64,000 bases of DNA from an uncultured Planctomycetota bacterium (GTDB lineage Bacteria; Planctomycetota; Planctomycetia; Isosphaerales; Isosphaeraceae): assembly GCA_963737655.1 (NCBI GenBank), contig CAVTTN010000002.1, positions 2,240,001 through 2,304,000 of the forward strand. Reading direction: 5' to 3'. Below the pieces are notes generated by a model that made no database searches, was not told the origin of the DNA, and saw only the letters and a program-made list of their open reading frames with translations. The translations under genes and the position numbers were made by a program. This document shows, in pieces, positions 6,632-29,121 of the stretch; within the stretch, counting starts at the first letter, position 1; each line of letters opens with the position of its first letter.

Positions 6632-8513
6632 ATGGCGGGGCGTTCCTTGTTCGGCCCGGTGTTCGCTTTCGAGAGCCTGACCATCCCCAGGCGCTGGCAG
6701 CTCTTCGCGGGGCGGGCCCTGTTCATCTCCGCCCTGCTCGTGGTGATGTCGCTTCTGTGGTGGCCTTTGGACCGTCTTGACGAGCAGGTTGGCCTTCAAC
6801 AGTTGGCGGAGATCGGGCAGGAATTCTTCCGGTCGCTGCTGTACGTCCAGATGGCGGTGGTCCTCCTGACGGCCCCGGCGGCGACGGTCGGGGCGATCTG
6901 CGTGGACAAGGTCCGGGGGACGCTGTTCCACGTCTTCACGACCGACCTGACCGACCGCGAAATCGTCCTGGGGAAGCTCGGCCCTCGGCTCCTTTCGATC
7001 ATCTCGCTGATCGCGTGTTCGGCCCCGGTGCTGTCGATCGGCGGGCTGCTGGGAGGGATCCCGTATGAGGCGATCGTGGCCCTCTTCCTCGTCTCGCTGG
7101 GGGTCGCGGCCCTGGGATGCTCCCTGGGCCTGCTGTTCTCGGCCTGGGCCCGAAAGCCGAGCCGGGCCCTGATCGCGGCGTACCTCGTCCTCGGCCTGTG
7201 GACGCTCGTGGCGCCGGCTTACATCGATTTCGACCGATCGTCCCCCGGTTCCGTGTCGCCCGAGGTTCTCCGGTTCCTGAGGCTGACAAACCCCTTCCTC
7301 GCCCCTCGGGCCTTGCTCGATCAGCCCGGACGCGTGAGCTTGCTTGCCCCCCTGGCCCTGATGCTAGGCCTATCGGGGCTGTCCGCCGCCATCGTGGGAT
7401 GGGTCGTCTGTTCGCTTCGCAAGGTGGTGATCCGTCAAGCCGATCGCCGGGCCAGGCCGAAGAAGATCGGGGCCCCAGGCAAGCTCGTGATGCTCCTACC
7501 GGCCCCTCCGCTGGACAGCAATCCCATCCTCTGGCGGGAGTGGCACCGGAAGCGCCGAACACTGTGGGTCGGCCGGGCGTGGACCGTCTATGCCGTCTTG
7601 GCCCTGCTGGCCAGCGGCACGGCCATCTTCGCCTACTTCGACAATCCCTCCGGCATTGGCCCGGACACTCTGGCCGGGGCTATCAACGGCTTGAACGTGG
7701 CGATCGGCCTTCTCCTTCTGATGATCTCGGCCACGACCGCCCTGGCCGAGGAGCGCGATCGCGGCAGCCTCGACGTCGTCCTGACCACGCCCTTGCCTTC
7801 GAGGACGATCCTCTGGGGCAAGTGGTGGGGCACATTCGCCATGGTCCCCCGGATGGCAATCCTGCCGATCTGGGTCGGTGCCGCGCTGGCGATGGTCACC
7901 GGCGATCTCGGCGCCTTCCTCCTGATGGTCGGAATGATCCTCGCCTGTTCGGCCTCCGTCGTGAGCCTGGGCCTCCTTCTCGCGACCTGGGTCCCGAGGC
8001 TCTCTCGGGCGATCCTCCTCGGGGTCCTCCTCTATGTCCTGGGGTCGATCGGGCTGATCTTCATCCATGGCCTCTATTCGAGCCAGGCGACCCGCTCGTC
8101 GAATTTCACCTCCCAGGCCGTCTGGCAGATTTCCGGCCCGTCGAGCGTGGTCCGCGTCCAGGCGGGCAGAGGCCGATTCTCGGGCGGCACCGTCGTGTGG
8201 AGCCCGGCCGGGCGGCGGCAGGACGGCCCCCCGGACGTCGACTGGCTCCTGCTCGCCGGCCCGTACCATGGGATTGCCGAGACGACCCGATGGGCGGGGC
8301 GGCGTCCGAGGGCGATGGAACAGCTTCGACTGGCCGGGCCCGGAGCCGAGGACCTACCGGGTCGGCGAGGGCGTGGCGCCGGAAGCCGCCGTCTTCTGGA
8401 TCGTGGCCCACCTCGCTGCCTCGATCCTCTTCCTGTTCGCGACCCTGACGACGTTCGACCGCTGCCTCGGCCGGGTCCGCTCCCGAAGGCCGAGCCGCCC
8501 CCGGACGACATGA
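6632..8513 (+). CDS. ABC-2-type permease with two membrane domains; frameshift near 8310
   Basis: Two repeats of the ABC-2 motif (AICVDKVRGTLFHVFTTDLTDREIVLGK and ALAEERDRGSLDVVLTTPLPSRTILWGK). The last TM helix and the TFDRCLGRV end lie in the 8067..8513 frame. Confidence 0.8.
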
Positions 8514-8571
8514 GACGACCCGGGCGAACGTCCCGAATCCGCCGCTCTCGTCCCGAATTAAGACGGCTCGG

Positions 8572-10071
8572 TCAGTCCCCGGTGGTCCCGGCCGTGGCTA
8601 CTTCCATGATCGCCTCCTCGGTCCACTCCGAGACGGGCCTAGCCGGGCTGAGGACTCCCCGACTCATCACCGCGATCCGGTCGCAGACGCCCAGGAGCTC
8701 CGGCAGGTACGAGCTGACCATCAGGACCGCCTTCCCTCGGCCCGCCAACTCGCCGATCATCCGATAGACCTCCGCCTTCGAGCCCACGTCGATCCCGCGG
8801 GTCGGCTCGTCCAGAAGGAGGACATCGGCCTCCTGATGAAGCAACCGGGCAATCGCCACCTTCTGCTGGTTCCCTCCCGAGAGTTCCCCAACGGCCTGGG
8901 AGACGCCTCTGGCCTGGACTCGCAACGCCGCCATCCATCTTGAGGCCTCCCTGCGCCTTGTTCGAAGGTCCAGCCAGCCCCAAGACGAATACGGGGCGAG
9001 TCGCGAATAGGTGAGGTTGTCCTCGATCGACCTGGCCAGCGCCAGCCCTTCTCCCTTACGGTCCTCGCTGAGCAGCCCCAAACCCTGGCCGATCCGCCCT
9101 CGGGGTGTCCCGCTCCCCGACGTCATCCCTCGGACCATGACTTGTCCCGCCCGAACCGGGTCGAGACCGAAAACCGCCCGCAACATCTCCGTCCGGCCCG
9201 CGCCGACCAGCCCGGCGATCCCGAGCACTTCCCCCCGTCTCAGGGTCAGGTCGGCCCGACGAGGCAAAGGGGAGCCGGCCAGCCCGCCGAGCTCCAGGAT
9301 CGGCTCGCCCGGCGTTCTCGGCGATTTCGGAAACAACTCCGTGAGCTCGCGACCCACCATCGCCGTGATGATGGAAGCCAGAGACGTCCTCGCCATCGGC
9401 CCGCTCGCCACCGATCGGCCATCGCGGAGGACCGTGAACCTCTGCGATAAACGCCCAACCTCTTCCAAGAAGTGGCTGATGTAAACGATCGCCAGGCCCC
9501 GAGAACGAAGACGATCGATGACCTCGAACAGCCGAAGCGCATCCTTTTCGGTCAACGAGCTGGTGGGTTCGTCAAAGACGATCACCCGAGCGTCGGAAAC
9601 CAGCGACCTCGCCACCTCGACGAGTTGCTGCGCCCCCACGCTGAGCTCTCCGGCCTTCATGTCCGGCCGGATGTCGGGATGTTCGAGGAGGTCGAGCGCC
9701 TCGGTCACCCTCCGCCGATGCTCCCTCCGGTCGATGACGCCGAACCGCGATCGCTCGCGGCCGAGCATCACGTTGGCCTCGACCGTCAGATGAGGGGCGA
9801 CGGTCAATTCCTGGTAAATCATGGCCACGCCGAGCCGCCGGGCCTCTCTCGGGCCGCTCGGGGCATACGCGGCGCCCTCCAGGGTCATCGTTCCCGAATC
9901 CGGCCGATGGGCCCCGCTGAGCACCTTCATCAACGTGCTCTTGCCTGCCCCGTTCTCGCCGATCAGCGCATGGACTTCCCCCGCGAAAAGGTCCAGATCG
10001 ACCCCATCCAGGGCCCGGCCCACGCCGAAGCTCTTGCGGACCCCTTTCATCACCAGCCGAGGCCCATTCAT
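8572..10071 (-). CDS. Sugar (CUT2) ABC transporter ATP-binding protein, RbsA/MglA-like
   Basis: GENGAGKST, VFDEPT, YISH, LSGGNQQK, LLDEPTRGIDVG; two tandem ABC domains in 499 aa. Confidence 0.95.
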   Translation of the reverse strand: MNGPRLVMKGVRKSFGVGRALDGVDLDLFAGEVHALIGENGAGKSTLMKVLSGAHRPDSGTMTLEGAAYAPSGPREARRLGVAMIYQELTVAPHLTVEANVMLGRERSRFGVIDRREHRRRVTEALDLLEHPDIRPDMKAGELSVGAQQLVEVARSLVSDARVIVFDEPTSSLTEKDALRLFEVIDRLRSRGLAIVYISHFLEEVGRLSQRFTVLRDGRSVASGPMARTSLASIITAMVGRELTELFPKSPRTPGEPILELGGLAGSPLPRRADLTLRRGEVLGIAGLVGAGRTEMLRAVFGLDPVRAGQVMVRGMTSGSGTPRGRIGQGLGLLSEDRKGEGLALARSIEDNLTYSRLAPYSSWGWLDLRTRRREASRWMAALRVQARGVSQAVGELSGGNQQKVAIARLLHQEADVLLLDEPTRGIDVGSKAEVYRMIGELAGRGKAVLMVSSYLPELLGVCDRIAVMSRGVLSPARPVSEWTEEAIMEVATAGTTGD

Positions 10072-11102
10072 CGCTTCGCCAGGATCCCGGCCTCCCTGAG
10101 CGCCCGGAGCATCCCCGACGTCGCCGACTCGTTCGAGCAGAATACGCCGTCGATCTGCCCCCGATACCGGTTTACCAGGCTCTGAGCCGTCTTCTGGGCC
10201 GAATCGGAGGTCGCCCCCGCGTATTGATTGTTCGAGAGATAGGTGATCCCCGGATACTTCGCGATCGTGTCCTCGAACCCCTTCTCCCGCTGCTCGGTGC
10301 TCTCCGAGCCGACGGCATATCGCATCATGATGATCTTCCCTTGGCCGTCCAGGAGCTTCGCGAGCCTCTCGGCGGCCAGGCTGCCTCCGCGATAGTTATC
10401 GGTGGCCACGTAGCTGACGATCTTCGACGAGTTCAGCCCCGAATCGATGATGACCGCCGGGATGCCCGCCTCGATCGCCTTCTCCACCGGAGCCACAAGG
10501 GCCGTCGCGTCCAGAGGCGCCAGAACGATCCCATCCACCTGAGCTGCCACGGCGTTTTGCACGAGCTTGATCTGCTCCGTCCGGTCGTCCTCCTTCTGCG
10601 GACCCTGCCAGACGATCTCGACGTTACCCAGCCCCTCGGCCGCCTTCAGGGCCCCGGCGTGGATCGTCTTCCAGTGCTCGTGGGTCGTCCCCTTGGGGAT
10701 CACCATCACTCGCCACTTCTTCGCCTTGCTGCCGGAAAGCGACGAATCGGCCGAATGTGGGACCTTCGGCGGGTTCAGGAGCGGCGCGATCTCCGCCGAG
10801 GTCATGTTCTCGGACGTGACCAGCAGCTCTCCCGTCGAGATCTTCGACTCGACGGCCTTCTTTTCCAGGGCATGGACGAGCGTCGTGACCGCCACTTGCC
10901 CCATCTTGTAAGGGTTCTGCACCACGATCCCCTGGAGCTGACCCTGGCGAAGGGCCTCGATCAGTGGAGGACTCGCATCGAACCCAACGAACTTCACCGC
11001 CCGAGGGGCCGGCTCCGGAGCCGACGTCGAACCTCCACATCCGGCTAGCACGACGAGACACCAAACCCAGGGACGACGCACGTTCGCCCTCCAGTCCGGC
11101 AA
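10068..11102 (-). CDS. RbsB/LacI-type sugar-binding lipoprotein, circularly permuted
   Basis: Lipobox LVVLAGC; VIPKGTTHEHWKTIHAGA, DGIVLAPLD, SYVATDNYRGG, VKFVGFD and VVQNPYKMG motifs. Its stop overlaps the ATPase start (ATGA). TTG start is uncertain. Confidence 0.9.
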   Translation of the reverse strand: MPDWRANVRRPWVWCLVVLAGCGGSTSAPEPAPRAVKFVGFDASPPLIEALRQGQLQGIVVQNPYKMGQVAVTTLVHALEKKAVESKISTGELLVTSENMTSAEIAPLLNPPKVPHSADSSLSGSKAKKWRVMVIPKGTTHEHWKTIHAGALKAAEGLGNVEIVWQGPQKEDDRTEQIKLVQNAVAAQVDGIVLAPLDATALVAPVEKAIEAGIPAVIIDSGLNSSKIVSYVATDNYRGGSLAAERLAKLLDGQGKIIMMRYAVGSESTEQREKGFEDTIAKYPGITYLSNNQYAGATSDSAQKTAQSLVNRYRGQIDGVFCSNESATSGMLRALREAGILAKR

Positions 11103-11231
11103 AGTTGGGATCGTAAAGTCAGGGAAGGGGCCTCATCGTAGAGATGCGGACTCGGGCCCGTCAACGAGCTGCTCCGACACCCATCCCCCATGAACCCCTC
11201 ACCCAATCTCCACTTTTTCCGAGCCAGCCGC

Positions 11232-11259
11232 TTGACCTGGCCGATTCTCCGGGTATCAT
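11232..11259 (+). promoter_or_regulatory. sigma70-type rRNA operon promoter
   Basis: TTGACC-N16-TATCAT about 420 nt upstream of the 16S; a 16-bp spacer is typical of rrn promoters. Confidence 0.7.
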
Positions 11260-11415
11260 GACTCTCGCCGACGACGAAACGAACGCTTCGACGACGGCAA
11301 GCACGACGCGACGATCACCCGGGTTTCGAACCGGATCGGTTCTGGCGACGTACTTCACAGGCCGGGGTGACGAGCCTCTCACAAGGGCGAGTCAACCCGG
11401 CCACTGGCGTCCGGT

Positions 11416-11445
11416 CTCTTTGACAATTCGGCCGATCGCGAGATC
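11416..11445 (+). promoter_or_regulatory. rrn leader boxA-like element and 5' arm of the 16S processing stalk
   Basis: CTCTTTGACAATT is followed by CGGCCGATCGCGAGATC, which is complementary to GATCTTGCGATCGGCCGCATTG at 13331-13352. Confidence 0.75.
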
Positions 11446-11680
11446 GAATGACAAGCTCGAAGAGCTTGTGGACCCGTGAGGGAAGCCGGCGTGGGCCGCG
11501 CATCCGCCGGGGGCGTTTGGAATCACCTCTTCGGGGGCGATCCGGGCGTACCGGGGGGCGGTCAGCACGCCCCGGCCTCTCGAGAGAGAGTCCGGAGCGA
11601 CCATCAGCACATCCTCGACCCATCGAGGAGCGACGGGGCGACTCCTCCTTCGCGAGAGGGAGGGGGCTACCCCGGAGCAC

Positions 11681-13204
<1,524 letters not shown>

Positions 13205-13722: not shown

Positions 13723-16523
<2,801 letters not shown>

Positions 16524-16731
16524 CCCCGACCCGCCGCCGCACGCCCCCCCAAAGGGCATGCGACGCGCCGGGCCGATCCGGTGGCCCAGGTCCCCGAGCA
16601 AAGATGGTAACGATCGCCGCATCCGGCGAGATGACGCCGTCCTGCCACGACCCATGCCGAATCGAATCGACGCCTCGTCACCGACGCGAGATTGCCGCGA
16701 CCCGCGGGGCCCGACCGCCCCCGGGCCGCGT

Positions 16732-16841
16732 TCCCGGCGACCAGACCGGCGGGGCCACACCCGTTCCCATCCCGAACACGGCCGTTAAGCCCGCCGGGCC
16801 CATGATAGTGCCCAAGGCGCGAAAGTCGGTGATCGCCGGGA
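16732..16841 (+). rRNA. rrf: 5S rRNA (short, ~110 nt)
   Basis: TCCCGGCGA...CACCCGTTCCCATCCCGAACACGG...TCGCCGGGA; short 5S rRNAs are characteristic of planctomycetes. Confidence 0.95.
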
Positions 16842-27175: not shown

Positions 27176-28123
27176 TCAGTACGATGGCTTGTACTGATCC
27201 ACGTTTTTCTTGGAAATCACAGGCAACGGGGTAATCACATCTTTGGTTGGAGGCTTCGCCGCGAGGAGGTCGGCGGCGGCTTTGACGGCCAAACGGCCCT
27301 GTTCGTCGGCGTCTTGCAAGATCGTGGCCGTCATCGTGCCGCCCCGGATGGCCTCGAACGCGCCCTTCGTCCCATTGAACCCGAAGACGGCCACGTCCTT
27401 CCAACCGGCCTCGCGGGCGACCTCGGCGGCAGGGAGCGCGAGTTCGTCGGCCTGAGCCACGATCGCCCGGATCGCCCCCGGCGAGAACCGGCGGACCAGG
27501 CCCGTCATCGTTTCTTTGGCCTTGTCTTCCTGGAAGTTCGTGTACTGATCCGCCGCGATCTGGATTTCGGGATGCGAATCGATCGCCTCATGCAGGCCCT
27601 TGCTCCGGCTGACCTGCGGGCTCGAACCGGGCGTGCCCTGGAGGTACACAATCTTGCCGCCCGAAGGCCCGAGGACCCTGAGGAGTTCCTCGCCCTGCTC
27701 CTTGCCGCCGAGGGCGTCGTCGGCCCCGACGTAGGCGACGACTTCGCCGCCGTTCACCCGACGGTTCAGGGTGATGACCGGCACCTTCGCCCGGTTCGCT
27801 TCCTCGACGGCCACCACCAGCGCGTTCTCGTCGCGAGGGCAAAGGATCAGCACATCAATCCCCGCATTCAACAGGGCCTTGACCTGCACCAGTTGCTTCT
27901 GGTCGTCGTCCTGGCCGTCGCGGACGTCGATCGCCAGGCCCAATCGCTGGGCCTCGGCCTTCAGGCCGTCGCGTTGCGAGACGAAAAACGGATGAGAGAA
28001 CATCGGCAGGACCGCGCCGATCTTCTTCGGCTTCGGTCCCTTCGGCACGGTCCCTCCCGAGCAGCCGAGGGCCGCGACCATCAGCAAACTCAGGGCGATC
28101 CGGCGGGGCAGGGTGCGGGGCAT
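27176..28123 (-). CDS. RbsB-type sugar-binding lipoprotein (canonical segment order)
   Basis: Lipobox ALGC; SHPFF, VPVITLNR, YVGADD, VFGFNG, ATILQD. Confidence 0.92.
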   Translation of the reverse strand: MPRTLPRRIALSLLMVAALGCSGGTVPKGPKPKKIGAVLPMFSHPFFVSQRDGLKAEAQRLGLAIDVRDGQDDDQKQLVQVKALLNAGIDVLILCPRDENALVVAVEEANRAKVPVITLNRRVNGGEVVAYVGADDALGGKEQGEELLRVLGPSGGKIVYLQGTPGSSPQVSRSKGLHEAIDSHPEIQIAADQYTNFQEDKAKETMTGLVRRFSPGAIRAIVAQADELALPAAEVAREAGWKDVAVFGFNGTKGAFEAIRGGTMTATILQDADEQGRLAVKAAADLLAAKPPTKDVITPLPVISKKNVDQYKPSY

Positions 28124-28164
28124 GGTTCGGCTCGACCTGTGAGGACGTTTTGGGAGAGGACTCG

Positions 28165-29121
28165 CTACGAACGCCGGGCCAGGGCGTCGGCCGCCGCGAA
28201 CGTGAGGATCACGGCGCCTACGGCCAGGCTCCGGTACTCGTCGGGGAACCCGCTGATCGTCAGGTAAAGCCCCAGGGCCTGCAAGAGGAGGCAGCCCAGC
28301 GCCGCGCCGATCACACTGCCCGAGCCTCCTTGAAGCGATACCCCGCCGACGACGCATGCGGCGATCGAATCCAGCTCATAATTTTGTCCGACATCCGGCT
28401 TGGCCACGCGGTAATAGGCGAGGTACATGACCGCCGCCAGCCCCGCGGCCATCCCCGACAGGCCGAAGGCGACGACGCGGAGCCGGATCGTCGGCAGGCC
28501 CGAGAGCCTCGCCGCCCGGACGTTCCCGCCCACCGCATAAAGGTGCCGGCCGAACACGGAGAAGCGCAGGACGACCCACGCCGCCGCCGCCACCGCGAGG
28601 AACAACGCTCCGAGGAAGGTCACGCGAAGCCCGCCGACTTCCGCCCCCGCATTGAGCCCCACGAACCCGAACACGCGCTCGATCGGCAGCCCGCCGAGGA
28701 CCGCGAACGCCGCCCCTCGGTAGATGAGCTGCGTGCTCAATGTCGTCACGAACGGATTCGTGTTCACGGCGGCGACAAAGAATCCGTTGATCGAGCCCAG
28801 GACGAACCCCACCGCGAGGGCCGCCGGCCCCGCGGCCCACGGCGACACGCCCTTCGTCGCCGCAAGCCACGCCGCCACGGCCGCCGAGAGGGTCACGATC
28901 CGCCCTTGAGACAGGTCGAAACCGCCCCCGATCAGGACGAATGCCTGCCCGACCGCCATCACGCCGACGACGCTCCCCAGCAGGAGGACGTCGGAGACGA
29001 CCCCCGGCTTGAGGAACCCCGGAGTCCAGGCGATCGCCGCGATCCCGACGGCCGCCAAAGCCAGCCTCGGCAGAGACCGGACGGCCCAGCGGATTCGTGA
29101 TCGACCGGAAGGCATGCTCAT
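28165..29121 (-). CDS. Sugar ABC permease, RbsC-like
   Basis: VLIGGGFDLS, NPFVTTL, FGRHLYAVGGNVRAARLSG, YELDSIAACVVGG. Confidence 0.93.
   Translation of the reverse strand: MSMPSGRSRIRWAVRSLPRLALAAVGIAAIAWTPGFLKPGVVSDVLLLGSVVGVMAVGQAFVLIGGGFDLSQGRIVTLSAAVAAWLAATKGVSPWAAGPAALAVGFVLGSINGFFVAAVNTNPFVTTLSTQLIYRGAAFAVLGGLPIERVFGFVGLNAGAEVGGLRVTFLGALFLAVAAAAWVVLRFSVFGRHLYAVGGNVRAARLSGLPTIRLRVVAFGLSGMAAGLAAVMYLAYYRVAKPDVGQNYELDSIAACVVGGVSLQGGSGSVIGAALGCLLLQALGLYLTISGFPDEYRSLAVGAVILTFAAADALARRS

Follow-up and report, generated by a model that had tools for sequence, protein, structure and literature searches.

Introduction

Substrate-binding proteins are textbook models of ligand-induced hinge motion, and as biosensor scaffolds they are often artificially permuted or interrupted by inserted domains. 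This work concerns a member of this class that is permuted by nature, encoded at 10068..11102 on the minus strand of a 64,000-nucleotide stretch of DNA (positions 2,240,001 to 2,304,000 of contig CAVTTN010000002.1, assembly GCA_963737655.1; the whole stretch is called the window hereafter) from an uncultured planctomycete of the family Isosphaeraceae. The gene specifies a sugar-binding lipoprotein of cluster B (Peripla_BP_4), here called the window protein, for which an original prediction, made from the letters of the window alone, had proposed that the last ~80 residues of the canonical chain have moved to the front.

Natural permutation of this fold is already known from two proteins. One is TpMglB-2 (Tp0684), a glucose-binding lipoprotein of Treponema pallidum which, according to its description, is a circularly permuted protein of type I/cluster B that carries the first three strands of the N-terminal lobe (N-lobe) at its C-terminus, crosses the hinge a fourth time, and retains both ligand binding and conformational change (Brautigam et al. 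2016, PMC4990184). The same paper proposes a ‘Type Ic / Cluster Bc’ and raises membrane tethering as a possible cause (PMC4990184). As far as that description goes, TpMglB-2 resembles the window protein in being a natural permutant of a type I/cluster B sugar-binding lipoprotein of an ATP-binding cassette (ABC) transporter, with a fourth crossing between the lobes, which in the window protein is a probable one. It differs in belonging to an MglB-like lineage of spirochaetes and Gram-positives and in having its new N-terminus in the N-lobe, whereas that of the window protein would lie in the C-terminal lobe (C-lobe). Its chain was not among the best 60 of the 88 PDB sequence matches to the window protein.

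The second known case is PDB entry 5ER3, an ABC transporter solute-binding protein of the planctomycete Rhodopirellula baltica SH 1, obtained by structural genomics and released in 2015, which is a solved permuted relative of the window protein cut at a different place. The literature search, which left subscription journals outside its scope, found PMC4990184 as the only paper on natural permutants of this fold, and found none on 5ER3, on planctomycete permutants or on multiple cut sites. Given TpMglB-2 and 5ER3, the rearrangement is less unprecedented than the original prediction implied, and both its lineage and its cut differ from those described for TpMglB-2.

Two further comparisons define the window protein. 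The engineered permuted halves of the Thermotoga maritima ribose-binding protein (RBP) show that the lobes tolerate new termini as well as artificial loops (Michel et al. 2023, PMC9815098); they are laboratory single lobes, unlike the natural and full-length window permutant. Canonical proteins of RbsB type (PF13407; 4RXT, 4WUT, 5DKV, 2DRI and, within the window, the paralogue at 27176-28123) share its fold and family and have partners of CUT2 type; compared with them, the window protein has its segments swapped, an extra conserved linker and, by homology, its anchor on the C-lobe.

Chain order of the window protein

The open reading frame (ORF) 10068..11102 is intact and is a real natural circular permutant; in its maximal form, read from a TTG start, it encodes 344 amino acids. 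After a signal peptide (11037..11102, minus strand, as are all parts of this gene) with the lipobox L-A-G-C at residues 19-22, the protein runs VKFVGFD...VVQNPYKMG...LLNPP, continues with PKVPHSADSSLSGSKAKK and then WRVMVIPKGTTHEHW, and ends in ...LREAGILAKR, all the strings quoted in the original prediction being present in the order given there. Segment B (residues 34-112; 10767..11003) is equivalent to the canonical C-terminal ~80 residues and comprises VKFVGFD as the last strand of the C-lobe, VVQNP as an N-lobe strand together with its helix, and a C-terminal hairpin with a tail ending in LLNPP. A linker (residues 113-123; 10734..10766) joins the old C-terminus to the old N-terminus and lies in a wider conserved stretch at residues 110-129, PPKxxHSxDxSLxGxKxKKW. 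Segment A (residues 124-340; 10083..10733) contains the N-lobe strands and most of the C-lobe, up to a final helix ...MLRALREAG.

The comparisons gave the swapped order of matches that the prediction had led to expect. On a canonical profile of 328 positions built from 61 canonical relatives, residues 34-112 match positions 244-322 (independent E-value, i-E, 9.8e-28) and residues 124-340 match positions 25-242 (i-E 3.8e-99). These ranges are complementary to within one profile position, with nothing lost or duplicated, and the cut is therefore exact; the claim that no segment was lost thus holds. The canonical order, in which N-lobe strand 1 comes first and the chain is collinear with the profile, is not that of the permuted protein. 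Pfam PF13407 scores 207.4 bits against a cut-off of 35.1, in two stretches, and in phmmer comparisons PDB chain 4rxt is matched at 7-214 by residues 132-337 (i-E 5e-26) and at 207-297 by residues 21-112 (i-E 6.9e-11), with an identical swapped pattern for 4wut and 5dkv. A collinear full-length match, which the original prediction had named as the result that would speak against it, was thus not given by these three canonical chains. The permuted relative 5ER3 aligned collinearly across the junction, in a single match of residues 32-285 to chain positions 82-334; it belongs to the same subfamily and has the same junction of old C-terminus and old N-terminus.

The paralogue at 27176-28123 (minus strand) had been offered as the canonical reference, and is one: its residues 35-290 are collinear with positions 1-257 of PF13407, and its alignment with the permuted protein comes out in swapped order. 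It is a canonical-order RbsB-type lipoprotein 27-30% identical to the permuted protein, and is adjoined by its own BPD_transp_2 permease (28165-29121), the pair spanning 27176-29121 on the minus strand.

The true start of the permuted gene is likely to be the GTG at 11081-11079 rather than the TTG at 11102, judging from the sequence, where GGAGG(G) at 11092-11087 precedes that GTG with a 5-nt spacer; the precursor would then have 337 amino acids and begin MRRPWVW.... The public gene call, P0003 (10068-10925), starts at an internal GTG at residue 60 and so misses signal peptide, lipobox and first strand, whereas homologues show that the longer form is real. The case matters for annotation, as automatic calling shortened the gene to 285 amino acids and domain tools return a split or partial domain.

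Conservation and selection

The permuted order is shared by every close homologue examined. A word-indexed search of 5.8 billion proteins was followed by inspection of the 120 best matches, and 120 of 120 have the same segment order by the canonical profile. With the window's own record set aside (100% identity, 83% coverage), these matches are 63-77% identical and cover 90-99% of the query in one local alignment. Named records with the permuted order are labelled Isosphaeraceae, Singulisphaera or metagenome-assembled genomes of Planctomycetota.

Among 60 other genomes of Isosphaeraceae, 45 have a match at E<=1e-20, and in 36 of the 60 it is one collinear match running from residue 34 or before to residue 341 or beyond (two of these 36 copies have one internal stop), which bears out the expectation that the same junction would be found elsewhere in the family. 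Of 200 genomes sampled from the remainder of the phylum, 31 have a match at E<=1e-50, none of which spans the junction. All 31 matches begin only at residues 88-132 onward, and for this reason the permuted order looks confined to Isosphaeraceae among the genomes searched. As a separate observation, six family genomes (G007, G010, G011, G024, G029 and G057) carry the permuted gene in two adjacent pieces or with stop codons; the gene is therefore being lost in some lineages, although some of those genomes are incomplete.

Pairwise ratios of nonsynonymous to synonymous substitution (dN/dS) are 0.03-0.11 over residues 34-340, and in the least saturated pair, L008/L009 (dS 0.45), they are 0.17 for segment B, 0.04 for the linker and 0.07 for segment A. 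Such ratios point to purifying selection on both segments and on the linker between them. In a 42-member alignment the mean column identity is 69% and both segments contain invariant residues; in segment B they include GFD and Q, which are of cleft type, and in segment A they are numerous. The lipobox keeps its Gly-Cys almost without exception.

Predicted structure and position of the anchor

An AlphaFold2 model, with the 42-member alignment as input, has a mean predicted local distance difference test score (pLDDT) of 90.8, with 82-89 in the linker, and a predicted template modelling score (pTM) of 0.83. The permuted protein is predicted to have a normal two-lobe alpha/beta fold. In Foldseek and VIA-align comparisons, the first ~210 residues of many binding proteins for ribose, allose, xylose and arabinose are covered by model residues ~130-343. 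These sequential aligners match only one segment of the permuted model to canonical chains; for those of RBP type the match has a Z of about 19 and a root-mean-square deviation (rmsd) of about 2 over about 210 aligned residues. The best VIA-align match is 5er3, in which model residues 31-284 lie on chain positions 104-358, collinear across the junction (Z 20.2, 236 aligned, rmsd 3.5).

The original prediction had also placed the lipid anchor on the other lobe. The C-lobe of T. maritima RBP comprises residues 106-243 (PMC9815098), and model residue 342 is equivalent to residue 216 of that protein (2fn8), which makes the new first strand (E36-41) the last one of the C-lobe. The claim thus holds by homology, and the lipid tether would have passed from the N-lobe to the C-lobe. 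A change in docking to the permease or in hinge dynamics, which the prediction suggested might follow, is a conjecture. The first three N-lobe strands are internal in the model (E130-135, E161-165, E191-194) and the chain ends with a C-lobe helix (325-337), a layout in which the chain probably makes four inter-lobe crossings instead of three.

Other permuted classes and tandem fusions

Profile-free searching with HMMER across 1.84 billion cluster representatives returned 15,656 matches at E<=0.001, of which the best 150 were sorted by the canonical profile: 80 are canonical, 11 are full-length permutants, five are in-frame double tandems and 54, fragments among them, are unclassified. By the profile position of the cut, the permutants form four classes. 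The family of the window protein (class I) is cut at ~243, P0139 and P0143 (class II) at ~216, and P0185 together with, by its alignment range, 5ER3 (class III) at ~186; class IV, cut at ~155, takes in seven of the best 150 representatives and P0272, which came from a search with P0138. In the model these cuts fall just before strands E36-41, E319-322, E286-294 and E255-261, respectively, so that all four sites would be C-lobe loops leading from a helix to a strand. Signal peptide and linker are particular to each class. P0185, P0154 and P0155 recur in two or three records, and P0139 is a single record. Besides its cut, 5ER3 differs from the window protein in having about 80-100 extra residues before segment B and in ending at the equivalent of window residue ~284-285, before the ITYLS strand; the two are 18-28% identical. 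The class II protein P0143, 435 amino acids long, is interrupted in its moved segment by an insertion of ~95 residues, placed between profile positions 292 and 292. Segment A of the permuted protein shares about 50-55% identity with its closest canonical relatives.

Within the same subfamily, whole RbsB-type binding domains are also found fused in frame behind one signal peptide, as doubles (P0123, P0147, P0157, P0178 and P0269) and as a triple of 886 amino acids (P0392). The copies are nearly identical within most of these fusions. Four of the six occur in more than one record (the triple, the double P0269, whose cluster members are labelled Oscillospiraceae, and two more doubles) and the remaining two doubles are single records; the 12 cluster members of the triple are labelled Anaerolineaceae/Chloroflexota, one of them coming from a 5.2-Mb Anaerolineaceae contig. 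A full unit followed by a partial one was met only in P0394 among 403 proteins.

For the trees, the pieces of each protein were merged by profile column (FastTree on 238 rows, a quick IQ-TREE run on 80). In both, class I forms one clade with support of 100, nested among canonical proteins, and the rearrangement of the window protein arose once in the ancestor of Isosphaeraceae and has been kept since. Class IV, on the other hand, appears at six places, and at least 10 changes between canonical and permuted order are needed on the trees. Forcing the eight class IV rows into one group lowers the log-likelihood by 455 units and is rejected by the approximately unbiased (AU) test (p-AU 6e-7), the group being defined by its cut site and the test having been chosen after the first tree was seen. 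At that p-value, the class IV cut site seems to have been used repeatedly and independently. Except in P0147, the nearest relative of a copy in a tandem fusion is another copy of the same fusion, and the fusions are therefore recent and recurrent. Finally, in seven permuted proteins the signal peptide can be aligned with the one of a canonical relative.

Transporter partners

Directly downstream of the binding-protein gene and co-oriented with it lies a gene for a CUT2-type ABC ATPase of 499 amino acids with two ABC_tran domains (8572..10071, minus strand). The stop codon of the former overlaps the start codon of the latter as ATGA (10068..10071, minus strand). In six of nine close loci (L008-L012 and L014) binding protein, ATPase and permease follow each other on one strand, while the sequence of L013 ends inside the ATPase gene.

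The genome of the window carries three BPD_transp_2 permeases. The one at G000:C2:2427396-2428463 (L004:1330-2397) is 51-70% identical to the operon permeases and ~32% to the other two, and this high identity makes it the displaced partner, about 176 kb away. Going by these identities, it is an intact orthologous permease of RbsC type. As to the sugar, the 18 flanking ORFs scanned in four related loci include no conserved catabolic neighbour and give no clue; one locus has a GFO/IDH/MocA oxidoreductase and a DeoR-type regulator, and the others have unrelated genes. Nor is a sensor kinase or chemotaxis gene conserved beside the permuted gene in these four flanks.

Taken together, the window protein is very probably a working, circularly permuted substrate-binding lipoprotein of a CUT2-type ABC importer, of the ribose/monosaccharide class. 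That the gene is functional, as originally proposed, is borne out by the conserved order, the purifying selection, the operon of the relatives and the predicted fold; it would act in transport together with the ATPase and the permease.

Alternative explanations and the origin of the permutation

Some observations weigh against this interpretation. Nine of the 45 matching family genomes have split, partial or stop-containing copies and 15 of the 60 have no match at E<=1e-20, and the gene is therefore dispensable in some lineages. No permease follows the ATPase here, and the permease is unlinked as well in the two closest relatives (L006 and L007), where no permease match was found in more than 4 kb downstream, so that the assignment to a transporter rests on orthology. 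As to the origin, no tandem fusion found in the trees is a direct ancestor of class I.

Could the odd order be an artefact of assembly or gene calling, in which pieces of one gene or of two neighbours were misjoined? Beyond the shortened public gene call for this genome, little speaks for such an error, and its probability is practically nil: the best 120 homologues, from independent assemblies, share junction, linker and termini, 36 of 60 other family genomes have the same order, and the linker shows both conservation and purifying selection. Misassembly, as one form of it, is effectively refuted by the independent assemblies that share the junction. A decaying fusion relic that no longer works as a binding protein would fit the unlinked permease and the frameshifted or split copies of some family genomes, yet it is highly improbable for a gene whose frame is intact, whose dN/dS is about 0.1 in segment B, linker and segment A, whose lipobox and cleft-type residues are invariant, whose ATGA overlap with the ATPase is kept, whose orthologous permease is intact elsewhere in the genome, and whose product gives a confident AlphaFold2 model. 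The unlinked permease might also mean that the protein has changed its job and become the ligand-binding protein of a sensor or chemoreceptor, or the partner of another permease, the moved anchor reflecting the change; TpMglB-2 has been discussed as a possible chemoreceptor (PMC4990184). Against such a change, which we consider unlikely, stand the single operon of binding protein, ATPase and permease kept by relatives, the overlap of the gene with the ATPase start here, and the four flanks examined, where no sensor kinase or chemotaxis gene is conserved.

The remaining alternative accepts the permutation and disputes only its route, which would have been gene fission with reversed re-fusion, or some other recombination. 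It could draw on the absence of a tandem fusion at the base of the class I clade and on the class I linker, which is unlike the linkers of the other classes. It nevertheless seems rather doubtful, because tandem fusions in frame, double and triple, are recurrent in this subfamily, the cut is exact and leaves neither gap nor overlap, and the permuted signal peptides align to a canonical one, as expected of an in-frame deletion behind the signal peptide; moreover, split two-gene forms were not seen, although no systematic search for them was made.

A route of duplication followed by truncation would account for the exactness of the cut, for the recurrence of tandem fusions and for the similarity of the signal peptides to that of a canonical relative, and we infer that the permutation originated by tandem duplication and subsequent truncation. 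By this route, the mature part would have been duplicated in tandem and in frame in the ancestral gene, after which the front of the first copy would have been lost, the signal peptide being kept, and so would the back of the second copy. The new chain would lead from the signal peptide and lipidated cysteine into the last C-lobe strand and the canonical C-terminal ~80 residues, cross back through the conserved linker region of ~20 residues to the canonical N-terminus, and end at the helix that canonically precedes the first strand of the moved piece. Normal fold and inter-lobe cleft would be retained, and the protein would work with the neighbouring ATPase, which has two ABC domains, and with a permease of RbsC type.

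A wider reading joins these results, and is put forward tentatively, with slightly more doubt than belief. The RbsB-like subfamily might be a hot-spot of permutation by duplication, in which chains have come to start at every one of the C-lobe's helix-to-strand loops (those before strands G, H, I and J), one of them being used independently several times, and in which tandem fusions are the raw material. The anchor would have shifted from N-lobe to C-lobe in all the permuted forms found, suggesting selection on the meeting with the permease, or on export or folding, over neutral drift, and the window gene would be the oldest and most widespread, family-wide variant. If such a reading is true, the subfamily is a natural system for the evolution of topology and for the relation of chain order to hinge dynamics or docking.

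It is the repeated permutation at defined loops, alongside tandem fusions, that deserves further study. Here is a natural permutant retained through the whole history of a bacterial family, with sister lineages cut at three other loops, which offers natural sites that tolerate new termini and, for the model in which circular permutants arise by duplication and then truncation, a rare series from nature. With it one could also learn whether binding kinetics or docking change with the place of the lipid tether or with a fourth inter-lobe crossing.

Neighbouring genes in the window

Upstream of the binding-protein gene, and divergent from it, lies a complete rRNA operon on the plus strand (16S 11681-13203, 23S 13723-16524, 5S 16733-16841), at a distance of about 580 bases (11103-11680). 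On the other side, a convergent ORF of 711 amino acids (6632-8767, plus strand) has two ABC-2 membrane domains up to about residue 480, followed by an Arg/Pro/Gly-rich tail that extends 196 bases into the 3′ end of the ATPase gene (8572-8767); this tail may be the read-through of a shorter gene, or the result of a frameshift.

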